64,000 bases of DNA from an uncultured Syntrophaceae bacterium (GTDB lineage: Bacteria > Desulfobacterota > Syntrophia > Syntrophales > UBA4778): NCBI GenBank assembly GCA_964597995.1, contig CAZRAC010000002.1:51-64050 (forward strand), read 5' to 3'. A program made the translations under genes and the position numbers. Below, one piece after another: positions 7,161 through 48,083 of the stretch. The notes beneath the pieces are model-generated. The model searched no databases. It saw only the letters and a list, made by a program, of their open reading frames with translations, and was not told the origin of the DNA. How positions within the stretch are numbered: the first letter of the stretch is position 1; the number at the start of each line of letters is the position of its first letter.

Positions 7161-8149
7161 GAAGCCCTTTCCTTGAAGTAGGCGAACACCCTCCTGAGAC
7201 CCTCGTCCAATGGCACCTTAGGCTCCCACCCGAGGACGCGTCTTGCCTTAGAGATGTCGGGTTGTCTTACTTTCGGGTCGTCCACGGGGAGGTCCTTGAA
7301 GACGATCTTCTTCCCGCCCCCGCAGAACCCGGAGACCTTTTCCGCAAGCAAAAGGATAGTCATTTCCTGGGGGTTGCCCAGGTTGACGGGTTCGACTTCA
7401 CCGGAGTTCAGGAGGCGCCAGAGGCCCTCCACCAGGTCATCGACGTAGCAGAAACTGCGGGTCTGCCGTCCGTCTCCGAAAACGGTCAGGTCCTCTCCCC
7501 TGAGGGCCTGCCTCATGAAGGTCGGGAGGGCGCGGCCGTCGTCGAGCCGCATCCTTGTACCATAAGTATTGAATATCCTGGCAATCCTCGTATCGAGGCC
7601 ATGGTAACGGTGATAGGCCATGGTCATTGCTTCCGCGAAGCGCTTTGCTTCGTCGTAGACCCCCCGCGGCCCGATGGGGTTGACGTTTCCCCAGTAATCC
7701 TCGGACTGGGGGTGCACAAGCGGGTCTCCGTAACACTCCGACGTGGAGGCAAGGAGAAACTTCGCCCCTTTTGCCTTCGCCAGGCCCAAGGCCTTGTGGG
7801 TTCCGAGAGAGCCAACCTTCAGCGTCTGGATCGGCAGCCTGAGGTAGTCGATCGGGCTTGCCGGCGATGCGAAATGAAGGATGTTGTCGACCCTGCCCTC
7901 CACGTAGATATACTCGGTAACGTCATGCTTGATAAAAGAGAACCTTTCGTTTCCGAAGAGATGGGCGACGTTGTCGATGTTGCCCGTGATCAGGTTGTCC
8001 ATGCAGATGACGGCGTGCCCCTTTTCGAGGAAAAAATCGCAGAGGTGGCTTCCGAGGAAACCAGCCCCTCCGGTAATCAGTGTCCGCTCGACTTCGGGCG
8101 GAAGATGCCGGGTGCTATTTCCTCGGGATGTTCTATCGTTTTCCTTCAT
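7157..8149 (-). CDS. UDP-glucuronate decarboxylase (UDP-xylose synthase-like extended SDR)
   Basis: 330 aa with [20 protein letters not shown] (YxxxK), and UXS-like segments ([32 protein letters not shown]). Confidence 0.75.
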
Positions 8150-8348
8150 GTCCGGTAATCTGACCTATGCTGAAAGCCGGGCTCAGACCTTCCTTTGGCA
8201 CTCTATGTCTCTGAAACAGGATAACGAATGCTATTATCAGGGCCTTTCTTTGTCAACGACTTTCTCCCTAAAAAACAAGTTCTTTCTTGACTTAATCCTA
8301 AAAACGATATAGCCATATTAACTTTACTTAAAGCTGTAAGGTGCCAAG

Positions 8349-9881
8349 GTGCTGATGAAAGAAAAGGAAAGCGACTTTCTCAGGTCACGACGGGAAAAGA
8401 TAGAGAGCCTCAAGGCCGAGGGCATCGAGCTCTACCCGAACGACGTCAAGGTTTCCGATACCGCCGCCGGTATCCTGGCCAGACTCGGCGGCCTGGACAA
8501 CGACGCCCTGAGCAGAATATCCGACCGTTTCTCGCTTGCCGGCCGTATGATGGCGATCAGAGACTTCGGAAAGGGGGCATTTGTCAGCCTCCAGGACCGG
8601 ACAGGCCGGATACAGGTCTTCTTGCGGAAGGACCGCCTCGGCGAAAAGACCTTTTCCCTCTTCAAGAAACTGGATGTCGGGGACATCGTCTACGTCGCCG
8701 GTAAGGCCTTCCGGACCAGGACAAACGAGTTGACGATCGACGCGGATGAGTTCAGGCTTCTTTCCAAGGCGGTAAGGGCGTTGCCCGAGAAGTGGCATGG
8801 ACTGACGGACACGGAGGTGAGATACCGGCAGCGTTATCTCGACCTGATAGTCAACCCGAAGGTTGCCGACGTCTTCAAGAAGCGAAGCCGCATCATCGAG
8901 ATAATCCGCCAGTTCATGAAAGAGCGCGATTTTCTTGAAGTAGAGACGCCTATGATGCAGTACATGGCCGGTGGGGCGGCCGCCCGTCCTTTCAAGACCT
9001 ACCACAACACCCTCGACATGGAGTTTTATCTGCGGATAGCCCCGGAACTTTACCTGAAACGTCTTCTTGTCGGCGGGATGGAGCGGGTTTACGAAATCAA
9101 CCGCAATTTCCGCAATGAAGGGGTTTCTTCCTCCCATAACCCCGAGTTCACGATGATGGAATTCTACCTGGCCTACGCCACTTACGAAGACCTCATGGTT
9201 ATGACGGAAGAGTTGATAACGCGCATCTGCCTTGAGCTTTTCGGTTCCCTCAAGATCACATACCAGGGGCAGGAGCTGGACTTCAGCCGTCCCTGGAGAC
9301 GGTTTACAGTCAAGGAGGCCCTCGTGGAGTTCGGCGGCGTCGAGCCTACCGTCCTCGAAGACCGGAACAAGGCCGTGGCTTACGCTAAGAGCCTGAAACT
9401 GGACGTCGATGACATGCCCCTCGGGAAAGTCATCATGGCCCTTTTCGACGAAACCGTCGAACCCAACCTCGTGCAGCCGACCTTCATCACCGGTTACCCC
9501 GTAGAGGTTTCTCCCCTGGCGAGGAGAAACGCCTCGGACCCTTCCCTCGTCGACCGCTTCGAGCTTTACATCGCCGGGAAGGAGATCGCCAACGCCTTCT
9601 CTGAACTCAACGACCCCGTAGATCAGCGGGAACGTTTTCTGATGCAACTGAAAGAGCGCGAGGCGGGGGATGAAGAGGCCCATGGGATGGACTACGATTA
9701 CATCCGCGCCCTCGAGTACGGGATGCCGCCCGCGGCGGGAGAGGGAATCGGGATCGACCGGCTGGTGATGATCCTGACCGACTCGGCCTCGATCAGAGAC
9801 GTGATCCTCTTCCCCCACATGAGGGTTAAGGACGAGGCAAGAAAGGAGGAAGACGACGAACCCGGAGTGATCGAGGGTTGA
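8349..9881 (+). CDS. lysS: Lysine--tRNA ligase (class II)
   Basis: 510 aa with an N-terminal OB-fold region and class II motifs (YEINRNFRNEG, GIGIDRLVMILT). GTG at 8349 or ATG at 8355. Confidence 0.93.
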   Translation: MLMKEKESDFLRSRREKIESLKAEGIELYPNDVKVSDTAAGILARLGGLDNDALSRISDRFSLAGRMMAIRDFGKGAFVSLQDRTGRIQVFLRKDRLGEKTFSLFKKLDVGDIVYVAGKAFRTRTNELTIDADEFRLLSKAVRALPEKWHGLTDTEVRYRQRYLDLIVNPKVADVFKKRSRIIEIIRQFMKERDFLEVETPMMQYMAGGAAARPFKTYHNTLDMEFYLRIAPELYLKRLLVGGMERVYEINRNFRNEGVSSSHNPEFTMMEFYLAYATYEDLMVMTEELITRICLELFGSLKITYQGQELDFSRPWRRFTVKEALVEFGGVEPTVLEDRNKAVAYAKSLKLDVDDMPLGKVIMALFDETVEPNLVQPTFITGYPVEVSPLARRNASDPSLVDRFELYIAGKEIANAFSELNDPVDQRERFLMQLKEREAGDEEAHGMDYDYIRALEYGMPPAAGEGIGIDRLVMILTDSASIRDVILFPHMRVKDEARKEEDDEPGVIEG

Positions 9882-38212: not shown

Positions 38213-38809
38213 TCAAGATTTCCCGGCCGCTTTTTCTCTGTAACGGGCCATGATCTCCGACCGGGTGAGGATGGGGACTACAGGACGGACGTGCCGCTCG
38301 ATCAACTCCCGGCCGCCTTCTTCCCGGTCGATGAGGACGACGGCGAGCTCTACGGTCAGCCCTGCCTCCCGGGCGCTTTCGACCGCCGCGATGGTCGAGG
38401 CCCCGGTAGTCACCACGTCGTCGATGACGGCGACTTTATCGCCAGGCCTCACGTTTCCTTCTATCTTGCTCCGGGTCCCGTGGGCCTTGGCGTCCTTCCG
38501 GACGATGAATGACCGGATAGGGCGACCTTTCTCGAAGGAAATCAGGGCGAGGGCGTTGGCTATCGGGTCGGCGCCGAGGGTCAACCCCCCTGCCGCCTTC
38601 ACGTCCGTGTCCTTCAATATATCGAAGACGAGGTTGCCGATGAGGTACATCCCTTCCGGGTCGAGTGTCGTGGGTTTGCAATCGAAGTAGTAAGGGCTCT
38701 TCCTCCCCGAGGACAGCGTGAAGGGGTTATCCTCGTTGTACCGGAAAGACCGCTCGATGATGAGGTCGGCGAGCCTGTCCTTCATTTTTTCAAGGTCTTT
38801 GTTCGTCAT
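38213..38809 (-). CDS. pyrE: Orotate phosphoribosyltransferase
   Basis: 198 aa with the PRPP-binding loop KVAVIDDVVTTGAS and a type I PRTase fold. ATGA overlap with the metH stop. Confidence 0.88.
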   Translation of the reverse strand: MTNKDLEKMKDRLADLIIERSFRYNEDNPFTLSSGRKSPYYFDCKPTTLDPEGMYLIGNLVFDILKDTDVKAAGGLTLGADPIANALALISFEKGRPIRSFIVRKDAKAHGTRSKIEGNVRPGDKVAVIDDVVTTGASTIAAVESAREAGLTVELAVVLIDREEGGRELIERHVRPVVPILTRSEIMARYREKAAGKS

Positions 38810-41211
38810 GTCTTACCGAATATCTCCTCGAGTTTTCTGACCGCCTCGACGCCGTCTTTGGCGTATTCGGCGCCCAGGGATCGGGCGTAGGCCTTCGTCA
38901 CGACCGCGCCGCCGAGCAGGAATCGGCAGTCGGAACACTCCTTGGCGGCCAGCTCCATCACTTCCTTCATGCGTACCATGGTCGTCGTCATGAGGGCGGA
39001 CAACCCGACGACCGCTCCTCTGTGGGCCTTCGCTGCCTCGATGATTTTCCCTGCGGGCACGTCTTTCCCCAGGTCGATGACCCTGTAGCCGTGGTTTTTC
39101 ACCATCAGGGCGACGATGTTCTTCCCGATGTCGTGGATGTCCCCCTCGACCGTCGCGAGGATGACGGTCTTTCTGTCGTCGGCTGCAAGGTCTTCTTTGA
39201 GGTGGGGTTCGAGGTAATCCATGCCCTGCTTCATCGCCTCAGCGCTCGCGATGAGCTGGGGCAGGAAATACTCCCGCCTGTCGAACCTTCCCCCTACCTC
39301 GGTGATCGCCGGTATCATCACGTCCTCAACGAGGCCGAGGGGCGACGCCCCTGCGGCCAGGGCGGCGGCGAGCAACCTTCCTATGTCCTCCCGGTTGCCC
39401 TCCAGGATGGCCTGGTATACTTTTTCCTCCGGTGTCGTTGTTTCGGGGGTCTCTCGTTTCCCGGAGTTTGCGGCCTGTTCACTGAAACGGGCGATGAAAG
39501 CTGCCGCGTCCCCGTCCTTCTGGGTGAGGAGGTCGGAGGCGGCCTTGATGTTCATGAGCTCCGCCTGGCCGGGGTTGGCGATGGCGAGGGTCAGTCCCTT
39601 CCCGGCAGCCATGGCGAGGAAGGCGGCGTTTATCCACATTCTCCCCGGCATCCCGAAGGAGACGTTCGAGAGGCCGAGGACCGTTCTTGTGCCGAACCTG
39701 CGGGAGCACCACTCGACGGTTTCCAGCGTTTCCAGCGCCGCCCGGGGGTCCGCCGCGACGGTCATGACAAGCCCGTCGACGACCAGGTCCTCCTTCGTGA
39801 ACCCCCGCGCCCGTGCCCTCCGAAAGACATCCCGGATGACCTCCTTGCGTCTCGCCGCCGTCCGGGGGACCTCCCCCTTTGCGACGGGTAGGAGGATGAA
39901 CATGGCGCCGTATCTGGCCGCCGCCGCAAGCAACCTGTCGATTTTCTCTTCTTCGCCGGAGATTGAATTGAGCAAGGCCCGGCCCGGGTATCTCCTCAGA
40001 GCTGCTTCTATCGTCTCGACCTTCGGCGAGTCGATCACAAGGGGCAGGGCGGTGGCGACCGCGAGCACGTCGACGGCGCCAGTCATGGCCTTTACTTCGT
40101 CGATGCCGGGGACGCCGACATTGACGTCGAGGAGGTCTGCGCCTTCCCTCTCCTGGTCGCGGGCCATCTGGCGGACCAGGGTGAACCTTCCTTCCGTGAA
40201 TTCCTCCCGGAGGGCCTCCCTCAGGGCCTTTTTCCCCGTGGGGTTTATCCGCTCGCCGATGACCTTCAGGGCGCCTCCCCGGTCGAGAAAGACCGTCTTC
40301 CTCGGCGAGGTGAGGGCTGCGATCGACCTTTTCGCCGGCAGGATGGGTTTCTTGTTCTTCAAGTTCCTCTTCAGGGAACGGATGTGGTCGGGCGTCGTCC
40401 CGCAGCAGCCGCCCACTAGGGCGGCGCCGGCGGAGGCAAGCTCCTTTCCGAAGGCTCCGAACTCGGACGCGTCCATCGGGAAGACCGTCTCCCCTTCCTT
40501 GACGACCGGTATCCCGGCGTTCGGCTTCGCCGCGAGGGGGACGGTCGCGTGGGGCTTCATGGCGGAGATGAACCGCATCATGTCCTCGGGGCCGGTGGAG
40601 CAGTTGCAGCCCACGGCGTCGGCGCCGAGGCTCTGGAGGGTTACGAGGGCCGTCACCGGGTCCGTCCCGTTCAATGTCCGCCCGTCTTTCTCGAAGGTCA
40701 TCGTGACCACCGTGAAGAGGCCGGTGATCTCCCGCGCCGCGATCAAGGCGGCCCGCGCCTCCTGGATGTCCAACATGGTCTCGATGACCAGGAGGTCCAC
40801 GCCCCCTGCGATGAGCCCTTCTATCTGCTCCTTGAAGATGTCAACTGCTTCCTCGAAGTCGAGCGGACCGAAGGGCGAAACGAACCGACCCGTCGGGCCG
40901 ACGTCGCCGGCTACGAGGGCCTTCCCCTCCGCCGCTTCTTTTGCCAGTCGCGCGAGCTTCCGGTTTATCGCCTTCACGTCGGAGAGGCCGTATTCGGCGA
41001 GCTTCAGCCTGTTTGCCCCGAAGGTGGCCGTGTAGATGATGTCGGCCCCCGCCCGCCGATAGCCGGAGTGAACGGCCCGGATCGCTTCGGGATGGTCGAT
41101 ACACCAGGCCTCGGGGCAGACCCCCGACGGCATACCCATTCTGTGGAGCTCCGTCCCGGTGGCGCCGTCGAGGAGCAGGACCTTTTTCTTGAGGAGGCTC
41201 GGTATCTTCAT
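38806..41211 (-). CDS. metH: Methionine synthase core (Hcy-binding, pterin-binding and B12-binding modules, no AdoMet activation module)
   Basis: 801 aa with the Hcy S-methyltransferase N-terminus (LLDGATGTEL ... GGCCGTTP), a pterin-binding barrel, and the B12-binding DxHxxG motif (GDIHDIGKNIV). It ends right after the B12 Rossmann domain. Confidence 0.88.
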   Translation of the reverse strand: MKIPSLLKKKVLLLDGATGTELHRMGMPSGVCPEAWCIDHPEAIRAVHSGYRRAGADIIYTATFGANRLKLAEYGLSDVKAINRKLARLAKEAAEGKALVAGDVGPTGRFVSPFGPLDFEEAVDIFKEQIEGLIAGGVDLLVIETMLDIQEARAALIAAREITGLFTVVTMTFEKDGRTLNGTDPVTALVTLQSLGADAVGCNCSTGPEDMMRFISAMKPHATVPLAAKPNAGIPVVKEGETVFPMDASEFGAFGKELASAGAALVGGCCGTTPDHIRSLKRNLKNKKPILPAKRSIAALTSPRKTVFLDRGGALKVIGERINPTGKKALREALREEFTEGRFTLVRQMARDQEREGADLLDVNVGVPGIDEVKAMTGAVDVLAVATALPLVIDSPKVETIEAALRRYPGRALLNSISGEEEKIDRLLAAAARYGAMFILLPVAKGEVPRTAARRKEVIRDVFRRARARGFTKEDLVVDGLVMTVAADPRAALETLETVEWCSRRFGTRTVLGLSNVSFGMPGRMWINAAFLAMAAGKGLTLAIANPGQAELMNIKAASDLLTQKDGDAAAFIARFSEQAANSGKRETPETTTPEEKVYQAILEGNREDIGRLLAAALAAGASPLGLVEDVMIPAITEVGGRFDRREYFLPQLIASAEAMKQGMDYLEPHLKEDLAADDRKTVILATVEGDIHDIGKNIVALMVKNHGYRVIDLGKDVPAGKIIEAAKAHRGAVVGLSALMTTTMVRMKEVMELAAKECSDCRFLLGGAVVTKAYARSLGAEYAKDGVEAVRKLEEIFGKT

Positions 41212-41563
41212 CTTCCGGTGCGCAATCGTTGCAAAATCGAAAAACGGCGATTTACAGTAAACTTTGAAGGCGCCGATACTACCATCAACCCGATATGGGT
41301 GTCCAGTTTTTAGGGAGAGTTATAGAATCGCTTCTTCGATTAGAAGCCCATCCGGGTCCGCCACCAGCGTGAACAGGCGACCTTTGAGGTGAACTCGCGC
41401 AGAATCATAGCGCAGCCTGTTTCTGCGCGAGGCGATGAGGACTAAGGCGAGCGATTCATCTCTCTCGACCTTGCATTTGTTCGCTTATGGCTGCATGCAA
41501 GTTGTCAAGCGTACAATGCACAGTGTCCTCAACCACTTACCACTCTTGGTATCATAGAAAGAG

Positions 41564-44500
41564 TTACGATTTCCAATACGAGCCGCGACGATGCACGTGT
41601 TTATGGCTAGACCACAAGTTATGAAGACTCTCCCTCAACGCAAGGGTGTCCTGATGTTTTAGGTCGCGTTCTCCCCAAAGAAGCCACACTAAGGTTTGGT
41701 GGGTATGATTTAAATAACACTTCATCAAATCGGCGCGTAAGTACAGTAAGTGGGAGCGGAACGTGTCTTCATCGGCCTTGAACTTTCGATATATTGTGGC
41801 GACACGTCCGCCTTGATCGTATAAGTCCCATTCGCCTTGTCTATTAACTAAACTTAGTTGCTCACAAATTGCTGGGGCAGGAACCGTAATGCCGCTCACC
41901 TGATTGAGTGGACTGTGGTAGCCTTCCCAAGCAAAGCTGTAAACAGGCACTTCAACAGGAATCCCCGTACTGCTATGCCTCGAAAAAGCTTTCCGTATAT
42001 CGCGCTTTACTCTACCATCTTGTTCGCGGAGGTGTGATCCGAAACGGGGAGACCAAGGAATTTCGCCTGCGTATGTGTAGTAGTCTTCCGTTGGCTCCGG
42101 GATAGCCATATTGCCTGGGTACTCGACCGTCTTAAAAGCTGCCAATAGCTTTTTGACATGACCGCGTTCCACCAGCAAGCCCCGGAGAAAAGTAAATACA
42201 CACCTTGGGTCATCCTTTGAAGACTGCTCAATGTAACCGTCTAGAAGCACCCACGGGCCATCCTGACCATCCACTTCTTTAAGATGTAGCAGATGATTGT
42301 AATTTGGAATGGGGCCATCTGTGATCCATGCCCGAGGTTCTGCAGGAGTCTTGGTGAATAAATCGGGTAACGGGGGTTGCCAAGTCTTCGCAGGTTCAGG
42401 GAAGCTGGGATCAATGTCGGCGTCAGATGAGCGTTCGCCAGCTCGCCAATCCGGTAAAGTGCCCTCGTCGAACCTAATTCCATACATTTCAAAGAAAGCT
42501 ATCCAAGAATATTTCTTCCCGTATCTGTCTGTCTTTGGGACTCCACGGCTTTCAGCTCGCCATGATGAGCCGCGGATTCTCTTGTCTATCTCGGCAAACT
42601 GACTTGACCTGTATCCCAATTGCGCGATCCTGTATTCGATTTGATGCCTAACTTTTCGATATATTGAGTTATCAAAGTCGTAGTTTCTTCTATGCGGAAT
42701 CAGCCTGCCAATGGTATAGTTTCCGAAGTCCATAAGGATTGACCCCTTGGCTTCGGCTATATCAGAGTCGCTGATTTTATCCGGTTCCAAAAATGGTGAG
42801 GGAATTTGACTGAACGTAGGTTGTAAGTGCGTTCTCTGCTCATCTGGTATGCATCCGGGAGCCAACCGGGTTGCCAGATTGATTACACCCCGGGCATAGT
42901 CCCTCATCAAGACATGGCAGGTAGCGTGCGGAGCTTTAGGAACGAACATCTCCTCTACCAATTTGCGTGCAAAGTCAGGGAGTCCCTTACGTAGCTCTTC
43001 ACCCCGAGGATCGGCCCAAAGCGACATCACAACGCCGTAACACGCCGCAAGCATACGCTCAGGTACATAAGGGTCATTTATTTCCAGTGAGTTCAGTGTC
43101 AGATCAAATAGAGCCTTTGGATTGCTGCATCCAAACCAATACAACGCACGTGTGGCATGATCACGTAGCAGACGGACTGTGCTTGTGAGGGTCCACATCA
43201 TCCACCGTGCTTTCAACTGATCCCGGGGGCTTAGAGCCTGCACCGACCGCCAGCGTTGCTCTAACCACTTTATATCTTCAAGTATATCTTCTTGCCTGCT
43301 GCGAACCCATTCCGTCCATCGGCGATCGCGTTCCGCCATCGACATTGAGCGAAGAACTTCGTTCAAGAAATCCACATTCAGGGGATGGGCTTGAGCCGCA
43401 CGGGTGGTCCAGAGCCTATAGAATAGGTCACGGTGTCCTTGCGGCTGTTGAGCAGTAAGGGTGGCTAATTGTGATACTGTCTCACTATCCAAGAACTCCT
43501 TGTCCAACCATGCCGAGTTATAAAGAGCCTTTGTCCGGAGTGGTTCGTCCAACAGGGTCCAGAGTTGCTCTCTGTATCTGCGGCGAGGCGTCAGCCCCAC
43601 AAGAGCCGTAAAGATATCAGCTGCGAGTGGATGCTGCTCTCCTACATCACCCGCAATCATTTTTGTTGCTTCCGCTTGTAACCATCTCATAAACTCATCA
43701 GACCCTGCATACTTCTCAATCAGTGCATCGGCTACGAGATGACCGGCTAAGGCATCATAAACGACAGCTATCTGATTACCACCCAAACGGGGGTCGGATA
43801 CTCGGATGAGCACACGTTCCTGTTCCAGGGCTCGGATAATGCTCTGATCCCACGGACGAACATGATCGCCTAACCGTTCGCGTAATTCATCAAGATCAAG
43901 GCTGCGCGTTTTCGCTTCCCATAAACACAAGCCGATCTTGCTAAGCACGGTGCGAATGTCAGACTCAAAGTAACGCCAGGAACGAGGCGAGAGCTGTGCA
44001 ATGCGTTCTGCTACCTGTTCCAAGTATCGCTCAAACAATGAGGTCAGTGAGCCAGGCATCGCTTCAACACCTACGAGCCGCTCACGTTTAGGATTTGTCA
44101 CCTCGCAAAACATGCGCAACGTGAGTGGATGTTGGAGAAGTTCCAATGGTAGCGCTGCATCCGATGGGTCGATCTGGTAATATTTGAAATAACGGCGCAC
44201 TGCATCATAGATGTCGTGTCCAAAGCCTGGTATCTCCAATCGTTCAACCCCATCGGGCAGCGCCTCTTTAACAAAGTCTGAACGAAGAGTGCACACCACC
44301 ACGACATATGGATACCGGGCTAGCATCTCATTCAGTGATGCAAGTTGCTGCTTCCAGTCGCGAGGATCCTCTGCTTCGTTCAAGCCGTCAAGGACGATGG
44401 GTAAACGTCTGCCCGCACGCTGACCTGCAGCGTCTACGGCAGCGACTAACGCTGCGAAACTCTCTACAGGGCGGCCGTTGATAACAAATCTGCGAGCAAG

Positions 44501-45598
44501 ATCATCAAGGGTTCCTCGGGCTGCCAGGTCACGTCCGTGGATCAGGATACCGGCAGGACGGTTCTCTACCGGGGCAGTGAGTTGGGCTGATAGGTGAGTC
44601 TTACCATATCCTGCATCAGCAACAACCGCGATCAAGCGATCCTCCAGCGCCTTGCGAAAATCATCGAGGAGCCGATTAGCAGCGAAAATATCTGCCACCA
44701 CGTTAGTGGCCCGCAAAACGACAGGACGTCGCTCTCTCCTCAATCGGCGAAGCAAGACATTCCACCCAAGATCAGGACCGCCTCGGGCAGTAAGTGCTTG
44801 ATGCACGATTTCATAATCTCCACCTGCCAAAGCGGTATGCGTCTGACCTAAGGTGTCTGCAACGAGAGTTGCGGTCACGACTAACCTACTGACCTCTTCC
44901 ACGATGTCCTTAGGCAAACTTGCCAGCTCAGTGCTGACAGCAGCAACACCATCCCGAAGCCGGTTTGTCACCGCTGTCAGATCAGACCAAGCTTCCTCCT
45001 CACCCAATGTGCGACGAAGTGAACGCTCGGCATCCACAATTTGGTGTGCTTCAGGCAGCCATCTTCCTGAAATACGCGCAACCGATTCATTATGCTTGTC
45101 GCTCAGCAAGTCCGGCGTAAGAACGAGTTCGCCGAAATAGGTACCGCGAAGGATTTCTGCGGGCCCACTGAGATGTGTTTCAACATCAGCGGCCGTCCAA
45201 AGATGGAGCCTCATGTGTGTTTGCAAACCATAGAACCATTCCTGATCACCTTCCGTCAGAGTGTGTCTTGTCCAGAGAATCCAGTCGGTCAATTCGGGAA
45301 GAATTTCTTTTGTCTTCCTGATAGCCTCCTCAATTTGTCTTCTCCGTGTATTTCCGATGGCCCGTCCACTCTGAAGGTCATACCACCTGCATTGCCAGCC
45401 ATACCAGCGCCCAGGTTCTCCCAGAGGGCACCTTGCGTGTAGTTTTAAGTGGAACTCAACCCCTGGTTGATTAGCAAGGGCGCGAAAATCACCATATTGC
45501 CCATAGTGCAGGCGAATGATTGCACGGCACAGTTGCTCGAAGTTGCGGGTTTCATCCCCAGGCAATGTCGCAAATATTTTCCAGTTCAATGCAGGCAC
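41564..45598 (-). CDS. NACHT/STAND-family NTPase with a distinct N-terminal domain and an ~880-aa C-terminal region of unknown fold
   Basis: 1344 aa, GTG start preceded by GGGAGGGAGG. Walker A is ADAGYGKT (aa 327-334, nt 44597-44620) and Walker B is IVLDGLNE (aa 401-408, nt 44375-44398). VVVVCTLRSD and LEIPGFG...YF follow in NACHT order. Confidence 0.75.
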   Translation of the reverse strand: MPALNWKIFATLPGDETRNFEQLCRAIIRLHYGQYGDFRALANQPGVEFHLKLHARCPLGEPGRWYGWQCRWYDLQSGRAIGNTRRRQIEEAIRKTKEILPELTDWILWTRHTLTEGDQEWFYGLQTHMRLHLWTAADVETHLSGPAEILRGTYFGELVLTPDLLSDKHNESVARISGRWLPEAHQIVDAERSLRRTLGEEEAWSDLTAVTNRLRDGVAAVSTELASLPKDIVEEVSRLVVTATLVADTLGQTHTALAGGDYEIVHQALTARGGPDLGWNVLLRRLRRERRPVVLRATNVVADIFAANRLLDDFRKALEDRLIAVVADAGYGKTHLSAQLTAPVENRPAGILIHGRDLAARGTLDDLARRFVINGRPVESFAALVAAVDAAGQRAGRRLPIVLDGLNEAEDPRDWKQQLASLNEMLARYPYVVVVCTLRSDFVKEALPDGVERLEIPGFGHDIYDAVRRYFKYYQIDPSDAALPLELLQHPLTLRMFCEVTNPKRERLVGVEAMPGSLTSLFERYLEQVAERIAQLSPRSWRYFESDIRTVLSKIGLCLWEAKTRSLDLDELRERLGDHVRPWDQSIIRALEQERVLIRVSDPRLGGNQIAVVYDALAGHLVADALIEKYAGSDEFMRWLQAEATKMIAGDVGEQHPLAADIFTALVGLTPRRRYREQLWTLLDEPLRTKALYNSAWLDKEFLDSETVSQLATLTAQQPQGHRDLFYRLWTTRAAQAHPLNVDFLNEVLRSMSMAERDRRWTEWVRSRQEDILEDIKWLEQRWRSVQALSPRDQLKARWMMWTLTSTVRLLRDHATRALYWFGCSNPKALFDLTLNSLEINDPYVPERMLAACYGVVMSLWADPRGEELRKGLPDFARKLVEEMFVPKAPHATCHVLMRDYARGVINLATRLAPGCIPDEQRTHLQPTFSQIPSPFLEPDKISDSDIAEAKGSILMDFGNYTIGRLIPHRRNYDFDNSIYRKVRHQIEYRIAQLGYRSSQFAEIDKRIRGSSWRAESRGVPKTDRYGKKYSWIAFFEMYGIRFDEGTLPDWRAGERSSDADIDPSFPEPAKTWQPPLPDLFTKTPAEPRAWITDGPIPNYNHLLHLKEVDGQDGPWVLLDGYIEQSSKDDPRCVFTFLRGLLVERGHVKKLLAAFKTVEYPGNMAIPEPTEDYYTYAGEIPWSPRFGSHLREQDGRVKRDIRKAFSRHSSTGIPVEVPVYSFAWEGYHSPLNQVSGITVPAPAICEQLSLVNRQGEWDLYDQGGRVATIYRKFKADEDTFRSHLLYLRADLMKCYLNHTHQTLVWLLWGERDLKHQDTLALRESLHNLWSSHKHVHRRGSYWKS

Positions 45599-45616
45599 AA
45601 CGTCCTCCCTCCCATC

Positions 45617-46030
45617 TCAAGAAGACCTGCCACGCCCGTACCCTGTATTAGGATAGTTATGGGCCGAATACACTTCTACCTTAGCACCTTTATCTAAGAG
45701 AACCTTGAGGAATGCAGAAACATCCGCCTCCTCTGTAGTAATAACTACTTTGTTGCCATCGACATCAACCTGAACGTCATAAAGTAGTTGCTCCAATTCT
45801 GCCGGACCAAGAATGTACAGATTTGCTGCTCTCAAGAGTTCCAACATTCCGTCTGTGAACCGATCTTGGGGAACTGTATTACTCTGGTTCTTGTCCGCAT
45901 CATCCTTTACCTGACCAGCAAGCTGGCTAAGCAAGTCTTTGGCTTTTTCTGCATCGCTGACTTCTTTGAAGTGCCCGATCATAACAAGATTCATGGAGTG
46001 TTCAGAGCCATAGCCCTTCCAAATCTTCAT
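45617..46030 (-). CDS. Hypothetical 137-aa protein (no family recognised), translationally coupled between the radical SAM and NACHT genes
   Basis: The ORF track starts at 46045. The ATG at 46030 is preceded by GGGAGG at 7 nt and overlaps the upstream stop (ATGA). No TM segment or signal peptide is seen. The tail is Gly/Arg/Tyr-rich (YSAHNYPNTGYGRGRSS). Confidence 0.6.
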   Translation of the reverse strand: MKIWKGYGSEHSMNLVMIGHFKEVSDAEKAKDLLSQLAGQVKDDADKNQSNTVPQDRFTDGMLELLRAANLYILGPAELEQLLYDVQVDVDGNKVVITTEEADVSAFLKVLLDKGAKVEVYSAHNYPNTGYGRGRSS

Positions 46031-46965
46031 TTTGCAACCTCCCACATTGATTCAAGCATTCTTAGAGCTTCCATTACCCCTCCCGACGCAATGGGGATAC
46101 CATGTTTATCATACGATGATCTTTTGATTGTTCCTGATGCATCGATATGAGCATATGCACGAAGCTCAGTTTCTCTGGGCAAGGGGTCCGCAATGGGCAT
46201 ACTGTCCCGACCTACTTCGCTTACAGCTATACGAATGGGGCCAGCATAAGAGTGCACCCACCTGCGCAGTGCTTGCATTGTGCTATTGTCAATACCGCTT
46301 CCCTTGTTTGTAGGGAGCTGCGGAAGTAGGAGAAACTCAGATGCACCGACTTCTGCTGCCAGCGCGATAGCTGCGTCTATTTCGGGAAGAGTGAGGCAGT
46401 TTACCAGATAATTGATGCCAAAGGGAGCACACTCACGAATCACTTCAAGCTTTTGGAGTAGTGCTGAAAAAGACCGGTTACGTATCTTCTCATATGTGGC
46501 GCCGATGCCGTCCATGCTGACGCGGATGAAATGTACATTTCCCTTTAAGGTAGCGGCCAATCGGCCATCGATGTGGTGTCCATGTGTTGTGAATGTCGCA
46601 GCCATGCCGGTGTTTTGGGTAACATGGTTGCATATATGAAGCAGGTTTTTGTACAAAGTTGGTTCACCGCCTCCGAAACCGACACCAATACACCCATTTG
46701 CATCAAGCTCGTCTAACCAATCAATTAACCGGCCCATACTAAGCATGGCCGGATTTTTGGGCGCAAAACAATGAGGACAATCAAGATCACATGCATTCGC
46801 TAACGCAATCGAGACATGGCGTGGCGCAGTGGACCACAACTCCTGAGCCACTTTAGCGTCGTCGATAAGAAGGTTCAGTCCTGTCTCGCGACTAAAAAGG
46901 AGGATGCCATCGGGGCCTGTTCGCACTTTGAACCGATGGAGCATTTTAACTATACCAGGCCGCAT
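46027..46965 (-). CDS. Radical SAM enzyme (no SPASM/twitch auxiliary Cys cluster evident)
   Basis: 312 aa with CxxxCxxC at C59/C63/C66 (ANACDLDCPHCF, nt 46768-46791) and the SAM-binding GGGEP (aa 98-102). The C-terminal half has only two isolated Cys. Confidence 0.8.
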   Translation of the reverse strand: MRPGIVKMLHRFKVRTGPDGILLFSRETGLNLLIDDAKVAQELWSTAPRHVSIALANACDLDCPHCFAPKNPAMLSMGRLIDWLDELDANGCIGVGFGGGEPTLYKNLLHICNHVTQNTGMAATFTTHGHHIDGRLAATLKGNVHFIRVSMDGIGATYEKIRNRSFSALLQKLEVIRECAPFGINYLVNCLTLPEIDAAIALAAEVGASEFLLLPQLPTNKGSGIDNSTMQALRRWVHSYAGPIRIAVSEVGRDSMPIADPLPRETELRAYAHIDASGTIKRSSYDKHGIPIASGGVMEALRMLESMWEVAK

Positions 46966-46972
46966 ATTTGTA

Positions 46973-47001
46973 ATTTTATCAAGAGTAAATCACATCGTTA
47001 A
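46973..47001 (-). promoter_or_regulatory. Putative sigma70-type promoter of the cassette (TTAACG-N17-TAAAAT)
   Basis: Read on the minus strand, the -35 TTAACG is at 47001-46996 and the -10 TAAAAT at 46978-46973, ending 7 nt before the ATG at 46965. There is no SD before that ATG, so the mRNA may be leaderless or short-leader. Confidence 0.3.
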
Positions 47002-47018
47002 TTCTAATTCTCCCTCGG

Positions 47019-47291
47019 TCAGGTCAGTGCCCGGTCATACCACATAAGTAGCTTCGGGTCTTCCTGGAGGACGTTCTCGGGAATCTTGCGGGCCACGGTG
47101 ATGATGGTGGCGTAGTCGCGCTCCTGCCAGGCCTTCTTAAATCCGGCGCGGACGGCCTCGTACTTGTCGGAGACGTACTTGAAGAGCAGGGTGAGGATGT
47201 AGTCCTTGTACTGAGAGGCGTCCATGCCGCCCCGCAGTTCGTCACAGGATTGCCAGAGGGAGGAATAGAGCTGCGATTTTTTCAGGGCCAT
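47019..47291 (-). pseudogene. hsdM: Truncated type I R-M methyltransferase (HsdM-like) remnant
   Basis: 90-aa ORF. The first about 44 aa (MALKKSQLYSSLWQSCDELRGGMDASQYKDYILTLLFKYVSDKY) match the HsdM N-terminal domain. No AdoMet-binding or NPPY/F catalytic region follows, and the ORF is far shorter than any functional HsdM. Confidence 0.65.
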
Positions 47292-47329
47292 CGGTCAGTA
47301 CCTCATCGCATCCATTGTTCTTCTACCTT

Positions 47330-47405
47330 GCGCTTCCCCACCGCCGGGAAAACTCGAGATTGAATATACTGGATTCCGCCCCGATTTTCATCGGGCTGAC
47401 GCGCC
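47330..47405. repeat. REP-like hairpin units (inverted copy of the 33.4-kb unit)
   Basis: gccccgattttcatcgggc (47378-47396) is the reverse complement of the cccgatgaaaatcgggg unit at 33412-33428, and the flanks also match (gcgtca.cccgatgaaaatcggggcgg.atc). A second small palindrome, ttccc...gggaa, lies at about 47334-47350. Confidence 0.65.
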
Positions 47406-47453: not shown

Positions 47454-48083
47454 CTATGCCTTTATGGGCTCGATGCCGGCAAGGGCCGTAACGGATTTTT
47501 CGGGCACGAGCAGGCAGGCCTCCGTCAGTCGGACGCCGAGCTGGTCGAGGCCGAGGGTCCTGTATATCCACTCCTGGTTTTGCAGCGGAAAGTCGCCGTA
47601 GCCCGCGGAAAAACGCCTTTTCGTGAGTCTGCGGTTTTCCCGGCGGAGTTTCCCTTCGAGGTACGCCATCATCCAGTCCAGGGCAAGGTCCACCACTTCG
47701 CTCGCCGCCGCGTCCAGGACCACGGCGCGGGTCATTCTGCCCCGCTCTGTATCTTTTTTGATTTCCTCCATGATGGCGGCCCCGGCGGTTGCGCCCATCA
47801 GCATGACTTCGTCCGAATGCCTGAGCAGCCCGGCGAGGCTTCTGCTCGCCAGCGTCTCGCCGTTCGCGAGTTTGATTTCCGTGTCCTTTTCCCTGTCGAT
47901 GGCCAACCGGACGGCAACACCGGCAAGGCGGATGAGGGAGAGGGCGTCGTCGATCGCACGGTCTGTTTCCTCCGCCTCGTGGGGCTTGAGGCGGGTCGTC
48001 CCTTTCCGGTATCCCAGCCGTCTGTAGATCTTTTCTTTCGGTGCCGCGAGGGTTATGGTGTCAAAAAAAAATGAACGTGCCAT
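47454..48083 (-). CDS. Stand-alone methionine synthase reactivation (AdoMet-binding, Met_synt_B12) domain protein
   Basis: 209 aa. RFSAGYGDFPLQNQEWIYRTLGLDQLGVRLTEACLLVPEKSVTALAGI matches the MetH activation-domain signature (RxxxGYxxxP ... P.KS). Confidence 0.78.
   Translation of the reverse strand: MARSFFFDTITLAAPKEKIYRRLGYRKGTTRLKPHEAEETDRAIDDALSLIRLAGVAVRLAIDREKDTEIKLANGETLASRSLAGLLRHSDEVMLMGATAGAAIMEEIKKDTERGRMTRAVVLDAAASEVVDLALDWMMAYLEGKLRRENRRLTKRRFSAGYGDFPLQNQEWIYRTLGLDQLGVRLTEACLLVPEKSVTALAGIEPIKA

Follow-up and report, generated by a model that had tools for sequence, protein, structure and literature searches.

A radical S-adenosylmethionine (SAM) gene of an uncultured Syntrophaceae bacterium was found to be, very probably, the Avap1 homologue of a three-gene Avap1–Avap2–Avs2 anti-phage operon, as judged by the gene layout and by the likeness of its product to the corresponding protein of Nitrospirae bacterium JdFR-85. 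The gene lies at 46027..46965 on the minus strand of the window, i.e. the whole 64,000-nucleotide stretch analysed here (contig CAZRAC010000002.1 of assembly GCA_964597995.1, positions 51 to 64,050 of the forward strand). It has an ATG start and a TGA stop, leads the operon, and encodes a protein of 312 amino acids. The operon is known from Klebsiella pneumoniae S_15PV, where it consists of Avap1 (radical SAM), Avap2 (DUF6375/PF19902), and KpAvs2 (Bechon et al., Nat Commun 2024; PMC11564622), and the present locus is a further example of this already published Avs2 variant, not new in kind. Beyond PMC11564622, our analysis adds that distant relatives of the radical SAM gene are paired with DUF6375 genes, often with no Avs2, the pair thus appearing mobile in its own right, and that the most conserved segment of Avap2 is modelled as disordered. 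The identity as Avap1 together with a mechanism directed at Avap2 is, as a joint reading, one that we slightly favour.

Bechon et al. defined Avap1 and Avap2 operationally as PF04055 and PF19902 matches, respectively, within two genes of an Avs2 homologue (PMC11564622). The window locus agrees with this definition: the radical SAM protein matches PF04055, its neighbour matches PF19902, and Avs2 lies two genes further downstream in the same orientation. Over residues 7–310 the radical SAM protein was 63% identical to that of JdFR-85, whose locus (L003) has the radical SAM gene, then DUF6375, and then Avs2, a layout as in the window; JdFR-85 is an example genome in Fig. 1B of PMC11564622. The first-pass annotation, made from the sequence alone, had placed the gene at the head of an operon that also encodes a 137-residue protein and a nucleoside triphosphatase (NTPase), and had considered a defence role; the operon and its link to defence were borne out. 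The window operon has the same three genes in the same order as the KpAvs2 operon, with an Avs2 of 1344 residues compared with 1352 in KpAvs2 and with the KpAvs2 domain layout, but it differs in host and sequence. The window Avs2 also has arginine (QCR) at residue 71, the equivalent of the essential Lys71 of KpAvs2, where the K71A mutation abolishes defence (PMC11564622); among the 61 homologues aligned here, lysine was found in 36 and arginine in 25.

Pfam matched the window protein with PF04055 (Radical_SAM) at E 2.3e-13 and 51.1 bits against a cut-off of 29.5, and a Fer4_12 match was below threshold. The translated open reading frame (ORF) confirmed what had been read off earlier, namely a 312-residue protein with a sole CX3CX2C motif (CDLDCPHC; Cys59, Cys63, and Cys66) and GGGEP at residues 98–102. 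The remaining cysteines are Cys92, Cys112, Cys179, and Cys190, with none after Cys190. Only Cys179 and Cys190 are in the C-terminal half and both are unconserved in homologues, and Pfam gave no match to SPASM (PF13186) in the protein, in line with the earlier opinion that a SPASM/twitch domain was unlikely. No PqqD/RRE domain was matched by Pfam in the N-terminus at E≤0.1. An auxiliary cluster formed with Cys92 and Cys112 was considered and rejected, as these residues are invariant in close homologues and replaced in distant full-length relatives. In databases, 2821 proteins matched the radical SAM protein at E≤1e-5, showing that the ORF is not a product of chance; the best 120 were 55–100% identical over nearly the full length. 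The family comprised 105 clusters (50% clustering, E≤1e-30) and graded to approximately 28% identity over the full length. Both CX3CX2C and GGEP were kept in 144 of 144 full-length homologues from the fetched loci, and from this invariance of the cluster and SAM motifs Avap1 is probably competent for radical SAM catalysis.

The AlphaFold2 model of Avap1 had a mean predicted local distance difference test (pLDDT) score of 69.8; residues 80–210 scored 80–93 and residues 243–271 less than 35, the model being weaker towards both termini. The core is preceded by an N-terminal three-strand element at residues 12–34 (modelled as three short strands and one helix over residues 12–46, pLDDT approximately 60), which ranks with the best-conserved regions of these proteins, distant family members included (Gly20, Gly29, Leu33, and Glu36). 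Translation from M1 at 46965 gives 312 residues and from the alternative start M8 at 46944 gives 305, and there are public gene calls for both. Neither of these ATG codons (window 46944–46965) has a clear ribosome-binding site, and conservation among the homologues begins at approximately residue 13.

The linkage of the gene was followed across genomes by scanning one genome per species with the radical SAM family profile (A1), which returned 256 relatives, the best 80 of which (48–73% identity) were fetched. These 80 span Chloroflexota, Acidobacteriota, Planctomycetota, Cyanobacteria, Proteobacteria, Firmicutes, and one Methanotrichaceae archaeon. The results showed that DUF6375 was immediately downstream of the radical SAM gene in all 80 loci and that Avs2 came after it in 76. 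Three of the other four loci end at a contig edge, and the fourth (L051) is decayed, with a truncated DUF6375 gene (8891–9172). A reverse search of metagenomes, anchored on Avap2, gave 80 loci; usable upstream DNA was present in 78, and the radical SAM gene was found upstream of Avap2 in every one of them. Avap1 without DUF6375 was not seen, the linkage being complete in the approximately 170 loci sampled.

In the window, the Avap2 homologue (DUF6375; PF19902 E 4.9e-52) is encoded at 45617..46030 on the minus strand, and its ATG overlaps the TGA stop of Avap1 by 4 nt as ATGA, confirming the overlap that had been noted earlier between the radical SAM gene and a 137-residue neighbour. Avap2 therefore starts at 46030 and has 137 residues, and the 142-residue ORF with a GTG start is a mechanical extension. 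The same 4-nt overlap was present in 114 of 155 radical SAM–DUF6375 pairs, implying coupled translation.

Among distant full-length relatives, whose radical SAM proteins are 25–33% identical to the window protein, an adjacent DUF6375 gene was kept in 10 of 10 distinct loci, and no Avs2 was found nearby in six of these (L164, L243, L245, L249, L251, and L253). In L164 (IMG/VR UViG_3300028571_002227, 7992–9256) the radical SAM gene overlaps a 121-residue DUF6375-like gene, after which the following gene is read from the opposite strand. The pair is embedded among genes for tail-fibre-like and baseplate-like proteins and a Mu B-like ATPase, and these phage-like surroundings point to a phage-borne standalone pair. 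L243/244 belongs to a metagenome-assembled genome of Paludibacter and L245/246 to a metagenome contig; L251 adjoins an integrase, and L253 lies amid many small unannotated genes. In L249/250 the gene order is inverted with the overlap retained, and the pair is beside a TIR-like gene, a type ISP restriction–modification enzyme, and AbiE. L247/248 is a conjugative element (MobA/MobL, VirB8, TrbC, ArdC; L247 7001–13867), on which the pair is convergent with a different Avs2 subtype of 1435 residues. This Avs2 is Avs1b-like at its N-terminus, and its gene comes after that of a partner of its own, an Avs1a/LmuA-like protein of the metallo-beta-lactamase fold. The canonical operon, with Avs2, was found in L252, L254, and L163.

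Thus, what is constant across the distant loci is the radical SAM–DUF6375 pair and not the Avs2 sensor. Since the pair is constant, and since Avs2 with Avap2 but without Avap1 has been reported by Bechon et al. (PMC11564622), Avap2 looks like the hub and Avap1 like an enzyme found only in its company. One Avs2 clade seems to have recruited the pair, which would be an older and self-sufficient two-gene module. One divergent family member, P0199 (447 residues), has approximately 140 extra C-terminal residues with a pattern (…VRITTKSDLYPAFIYELVQHGALVSIRY) resembling the DUF6375 core, as in a possible natural fusion of the enzyme with its partner; the match of this region to DUF6375 was weak (hhalign E 0.009, probability 4.5%), with no Pfam match.

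The AlphaFold2 model of Avap2 (pLDDT 83) showed a ferredoxin-like four-strand core with inserted helices over residues 15–122. Ahead of this core is the invariant N-terminal tail MKIWKGYGSEHS, residues 1–11 of which were modelled as disordered (pLDDT 36). The tail (MKIW..EHS) is the most conserved part of the protein: MKIW was found in 108 of 155 homologues, the rest having conservative variants, and SEHS in 145 of 155. The residues invariant over Avs2-linked and standalone pairs were Met1, Lys2, Trp4, His11, Ser12, Gly19, and Phe21, and at the C-terminal end (YSxHDYP) Ser122, His124, and Tyr126 were conserved in at least 90% of the same sequences. The conservation of these flexible ends, with or without Avs2, would be expected of an element contacted by the radical SAM enzyme, whether it serves as substrate or provides a strand for docking. 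The ELEQF..YD helix at residues 78–85 was conserved in the Avs2-linked set only, and the residues conserved in this set alone are candidates for the contact with Avs2.

Searches of PDB and viral folds with the Avap2 model gave no match at E<0.01. Two other roles for Avap2 were considered. A flavodoxin-type electron donor, suggested by the ‘MKIW.GYGS’ start, was rejected on the basis of the four-strand ferredoxin-like fold and the lack of a fold match. A glycyl-radical protein, which would carry a conserved RVxG[FWY] glycine loop at the C-terminus, was also rejected, because the TGYGRG found there in Avap2 is missing from many homologues and from every standalone pair.

The functional data come from the published system (PMC11564622). 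KpAvs2 combines an Mrr-like nuclease and a STAND NTPase with a C-terminal sensor (residues 1066–1352 were deleted in that study); the C-terminal domain senses phage proteins, the NTPase motif is needed, and the Mrr-like nuclease kills the infected cell in abortive infection (PMC11564622). Defence from KpAvs2 on its own was weak; Avap2 was required against SECphi18 and for full defence, and it bound the KpAvs2 helical bundle between the nuclease and NTPase domains both before and after infection (PMC11564622). Inactivation of avap1 left the defence against SECphi18 intact and reduced that against T2, and Avap1 expressed alone in E. coli was tolerated and gave no defence (PMC11564622). The intact SECphi18 defence shows that Avap1 is not needed for the function of Avs2 or Avap2 against this phage. 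A deletion of avap2 was unobtainable when avap1 and avs2 were present (PMC11564622). Bechon et al. detected no viperin-type nucleotides with the KpAvs2 operon and saw no nucleoside triphosphate (NTP) pocket in their AlphaFold model of Avap1, and they called the roles of Avap1 and Avap2 unclear (PMC11564622). Our full-text literature search on DUF6375, or Avs2 with radical SAM, found this one paper; later papers mentioning KpAvs2 leave Avap1 unaddressed, and the search found none resolving its function.

All NCBIfam matches of Avap1 were far below the cut-offs, the best being to SPASM-group GeoRSP, NirJ, AhbC/D, MftC, and PqqE. Assignment to a housekeeping family (cofactor or tRNA modification) was rejected on these grounds; the first-pass annotation had named such an assignment, or a lack of conserved partners in other genomes, as what would speak against a defence-related enzyme, and with DUF6375 adjacent in 80 of 80 loci neither was found. 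The NCBIfam viperin model (NF038283) gave 41.2 bits against a cut-off of 180, and the PADLOC pVip profiles (E 1.7e-15) aligned to Avap1 at profile positions 3–109 of 257 and 9–121 of 262 only. Viperin membership was thus rejected, since the score is below the curated cut-off and only the generic cluster-binding half of the profiles is covered. In a search of PDB sequences the best match was SkfB (2.8e-15, residues 39–210), with viperins at approximately 1e-6. By these comparisons the core of Avap1 appears closer to peptide- or protein-maturase enzymes than to viperins, and the earlier impression of a maturase-like rather than viperin-like enzyme held. The structural comparison with viperins and maturases that had been proposed was run with Foldseek and did not discriminate between them: SkfB, BlsE, viperins, and SuiB all had a template modelling (TM) score of approximately 0.6, and because of this tie and the unreliable C-terminus of the model the fold search is uninformative on class.

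Avap1 resembles viperins (pVip) in being defence-linked, in its size of approximately 300 residues, in having one [4Fe-4S] site and no auxiliary cluster, and in a partial TIM-barrel core (TM approximately 0.62). It differs from them in its obligate pairing with a DUF6375 protein and in failing the curated viperin model, and the published KpAvs2 system yielded no 3′-deoxy-3′,4′-didehydro (ddh) nucleotides (PMC11564622). Its core sequence is closest to that of SPASM/twitch maturases (SkfB, SuiB, anSME, PqqE, and MftC), with ISxDG...R and GINxVVN-type motifs, and a small co-translated partner whose flexible ends are invariant could plausibly serve as substrate. Unlike these maturases and HxsB/HxsC, Avap1 has neither an auxiliary cluster nor a full PqqD-type recognition domain, there being approximately 45 residues before the core; and its partner, also in contrast to theirs, is a folded 137-residue protein, not a repeat peptide. 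Protein maturation by radical SAM enzymes has a precedent in phage defence in the HXS system, where HxsB/HxsC mature the protein effector HxsA (PMC13128918), and Ophion OpnA is a further, non-viperin radical SAM enzyme of defence. The first-pass annotation had held viperin to be the only radical SAM family with a defence role; HxsB/HxsC, OpnA, and Avap1 itself make this outdated.

The first-pass annotation had also left it between an effector and a maturase, and the context leans towards a role tied to the 137-residue protein, not to the NTPase. On our preferred reading, Avap1 would act on or through Avap2, and neither on the NTPase nor as a viperin-type maker of nucleotides. Its most likely form would be a radical modification of, or a SAM-dependent docking with, the Avap2 tail (M1 K2 W4 ... 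H11 S12), the YSxHDYP end, or both. Such an action would tune an output of the Avap2–Avs2 complex or add one; Avap1 extends protection to certain phages, T2 being the published case. An Avap2-directed enzyme is favoured over a viperin-like nucleotide maker because Avap1 was never seen without DUF6375, the tail is conserved, and the viperin cut-offs were failed. Taken alone, this Avap2-directed reading has, from the context, about an even chance of being right.

Several points weigh against it. Since Avap2 and Avs2 give full protection from SECphi18 when Avap1 is inactivated, any modification of Avap2 would be unneeded for the basic function. Peptide maturases typically have auxiliary clusters and a full recognition domain (RRE), both of which Avap1 lacks; by fold, maturases could not be told apart from viperins or BlsE (TM approximately 0.6); and the Avap1 model is moderate (pLDDT 69.8) with a poor C-terminus. 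Gene adjacency is no proof of an enzyme–substrate relationship. The conserved disordered tail of Avap2 could equally be an element for binding Avs2 or for oligomerisation; its conservation in pairs without Avs2 argues against a role in Avs2 binding only, but not against other partners.

The possibility exists that the radical SAM–DUF6375 pair is an autonomous mobile immune or counter-immune module in which the enzyme acts on the flexible tail of its partner and which was captured by one Avs2 lineage; we regard this tentatively, as the less probable case. If it were true, Avap1 would establish a new kind of radical SAM enzyme in immunity, one that is directed at a protein and has no auxiliary clusters. 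It is unlikely, though still worth weighing, that Avap1 is a second, small-molecule effector with a non-viperin substrate, Avs2-triggered or constitutive, that turns a nucleotide or another metabolite into an antiviral or signalling compound. The modified DNA of T2 may resist the Avs2 nuclease, and Avap1 is needed against T2 and not against SECphi18. Viperins are among the structural neighbours of Avap1 (TM 0.62, E approximately 1e-9) and among its profile matches (PADLOC pVip E 1.7e-15), Avap1 is about the size of a viperin without an auxiliary cluster, and Ophion shows that non-viperin radical SAM enzymes occur in defence. However, the viperin matches are limited to the generic cluster-binding half (41 bits compared with 180), neither pVip-type nucleotides nor an NTP pocket was found (PMC11564622), and a small-molecule effector leaves unexplained the constant DUF6375 pairing and coupled translation, which persist even without Avs2.

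More doubtful still is a toxin/antidote-like abortive-infection module, in which Avap1 would be toxic, for example by uncontrolled SAM cleavage or radical damage, Avap2 would gate it, and the Avs2 clade would couple this gate to a sensor. The pair does occur alone in a phage-like contig, beside an integrase, and in defence islands, as well as on a conjugative element; its two genes overlap and are tightly coupled, and the failure to delete avap2 in the presence of avap1 and avs2 suggests toxicity (PMC11564622). Yet Avap1 alone was tolerated in E. coli, so that the toxicity seemed to need Avs2, and Avap2 is also positively needed for Avs2 defence and binds Avs2 (PMC11564622). The dependence of T2 defence on Avap1 (PMC11564622) could further be explained, given the glucosyl-hydroxymethylcytosine DNA of this phage and the link with a DNA-degrading effector, by an action on nucleic acid, i.e. 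by Avap1 modifying or damaging phage or host DNA or RNA, or stripping the phage DNA modification for the Mrr-like nuclease. We found no nucleic-acid-binding domain in Avap1 and no above-threshold similarity to RNA- or DNA-modifying radical SAM families, and the standalone pairs have no nuclease partner, so that this explanation is improbable. Finally, weak generic matches to the NirJ, AhbC/D, MoaA, and PqqE models might suggest a housekeeping radical SAM enzyme merely located beside defence genes, but these matches are 10- to 15-fold below the curated cut-offs. The gene lies in a low-GC island (0.51 compared with 0.59–0.67) and the DUF6375 linkage is complete in approximately 170 loci, a context that refutes this explanation.

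Among the small number of radical SAM enzymes with a demonstrated part in phage defence, Avap1 belongs neither to the viperins nor to the classical SPASM maturases. Because DUF6375 is its invariable partner and the pair persists in phages and mobile elements where Avs2 is absent, attention should be focused on the Avap1–Avap2 pair, the MKIW..EHS tail and the YSxHDYP end of Avap2 being the first places to look for chemistry. The standalone radical SAM–DUF6375 pairs may represent a module of defence or anti-defence that has so far gone unnoticed.

The third gene of the operon (41564..45598, minus strand), which starts 18 nt after the Avap2 stop, encodes the 1344-residue Avs2-type STAND NTPase. 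It matched PADLOC Avs2 (PDLC02164) at E 1.4e-123 over residues 2–966, and the NCBIfam Avs2 equivalog gave 295 bits against a cut-off of 1000; the protein thus appears to be a member of the Avs2 clade by the PADLOC models, but not by the strict equivalog cut-off of NCBI. Residues 5–118 match the Avs4 nuclease N-terminus (NCBIfam). An alignment of 63 homologues showed conservation of the Mrr-like residues Glu48, His50, and Gln69 and of the Walker A motif GYGKT (Lys333), and the protein has a long C-terminal sensor region. The NACHT label given to it earlier did not hold in the strict sense, as Pfam NACHT (PF05729) was below the cut-off (16.1 bits compared with 26.7, E 0.01); ‘Avs2-type STAND NTPase’ is therefore the accurate label.

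Damage to Avs2 was frequent in other genomes, alongside intact genes for the radical SAM and DUF6375 proteins. In L082 (3884–7928), which has the closest relative of the window Avap2 (88% identical), Avs2 is frameshifted. A 1144-residue ORF in L082 was considered as a fusion and rejected, since its open frame joins no more than a piece of a methyltransferase to the radical SAM domain. In L162 (10329–15663; Vibrio plasmids) Avs2 is split by an IS3 element, and in L254 (7825–12377) a DDE transposase lies between Avap2 and Avs2. The operon is also plasmid-borne; on a Vibrio plasmid, where Avs2 is interrupted by the IS3 element, it adjoins BREX.

Just upstream of the Avap1 start, a sigma-70-like promoter match (TTAACG-17-TAAAAT with an upstream TG) was found at 46973..47001 on the minus strand; this is a consensus match only, and its -10 element ends 8 nt before the first Avap1 ATG. 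Promoter-type sites in the region numbered 8 compared with a shuffled expectation of 6.3, i.e. there was no excess. The operon lies in a low-GC stretch of approximately 6 kb (about 41300–47400; GC approximately 0.51 compared with 0.59–0.67 in the flanks). It is flanked by a metH-like gene (38806–41211) and by a 209-residue gene (47454–48083) weakly similar to the methionine synthase activation domain, and it looks as if it was inserted between two functionally related host genes.

A defence-island setting is common to many homologues, with BREX, restriction–modification, and AbiE elsewhere and a DNA methyltransferase remnant in the window. This remnant of 90 residues, which is not a working part, lies directly upstream of the operon at 47019..47291 on the minus strand and was recognised by Pfam, PADLOC, and NCBIfam matches. 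Residues 1–62 correspond to the N-terminus of a type I HsdM and residues 43–90 to the extreme C-terminus of a type II/PglX-like methyltransferase, and it seems that a large methyltransferase gene has lost its interior. This 90-residue remnant was also present upstream of an identical operon in other metagenome contigs (L255–L257).

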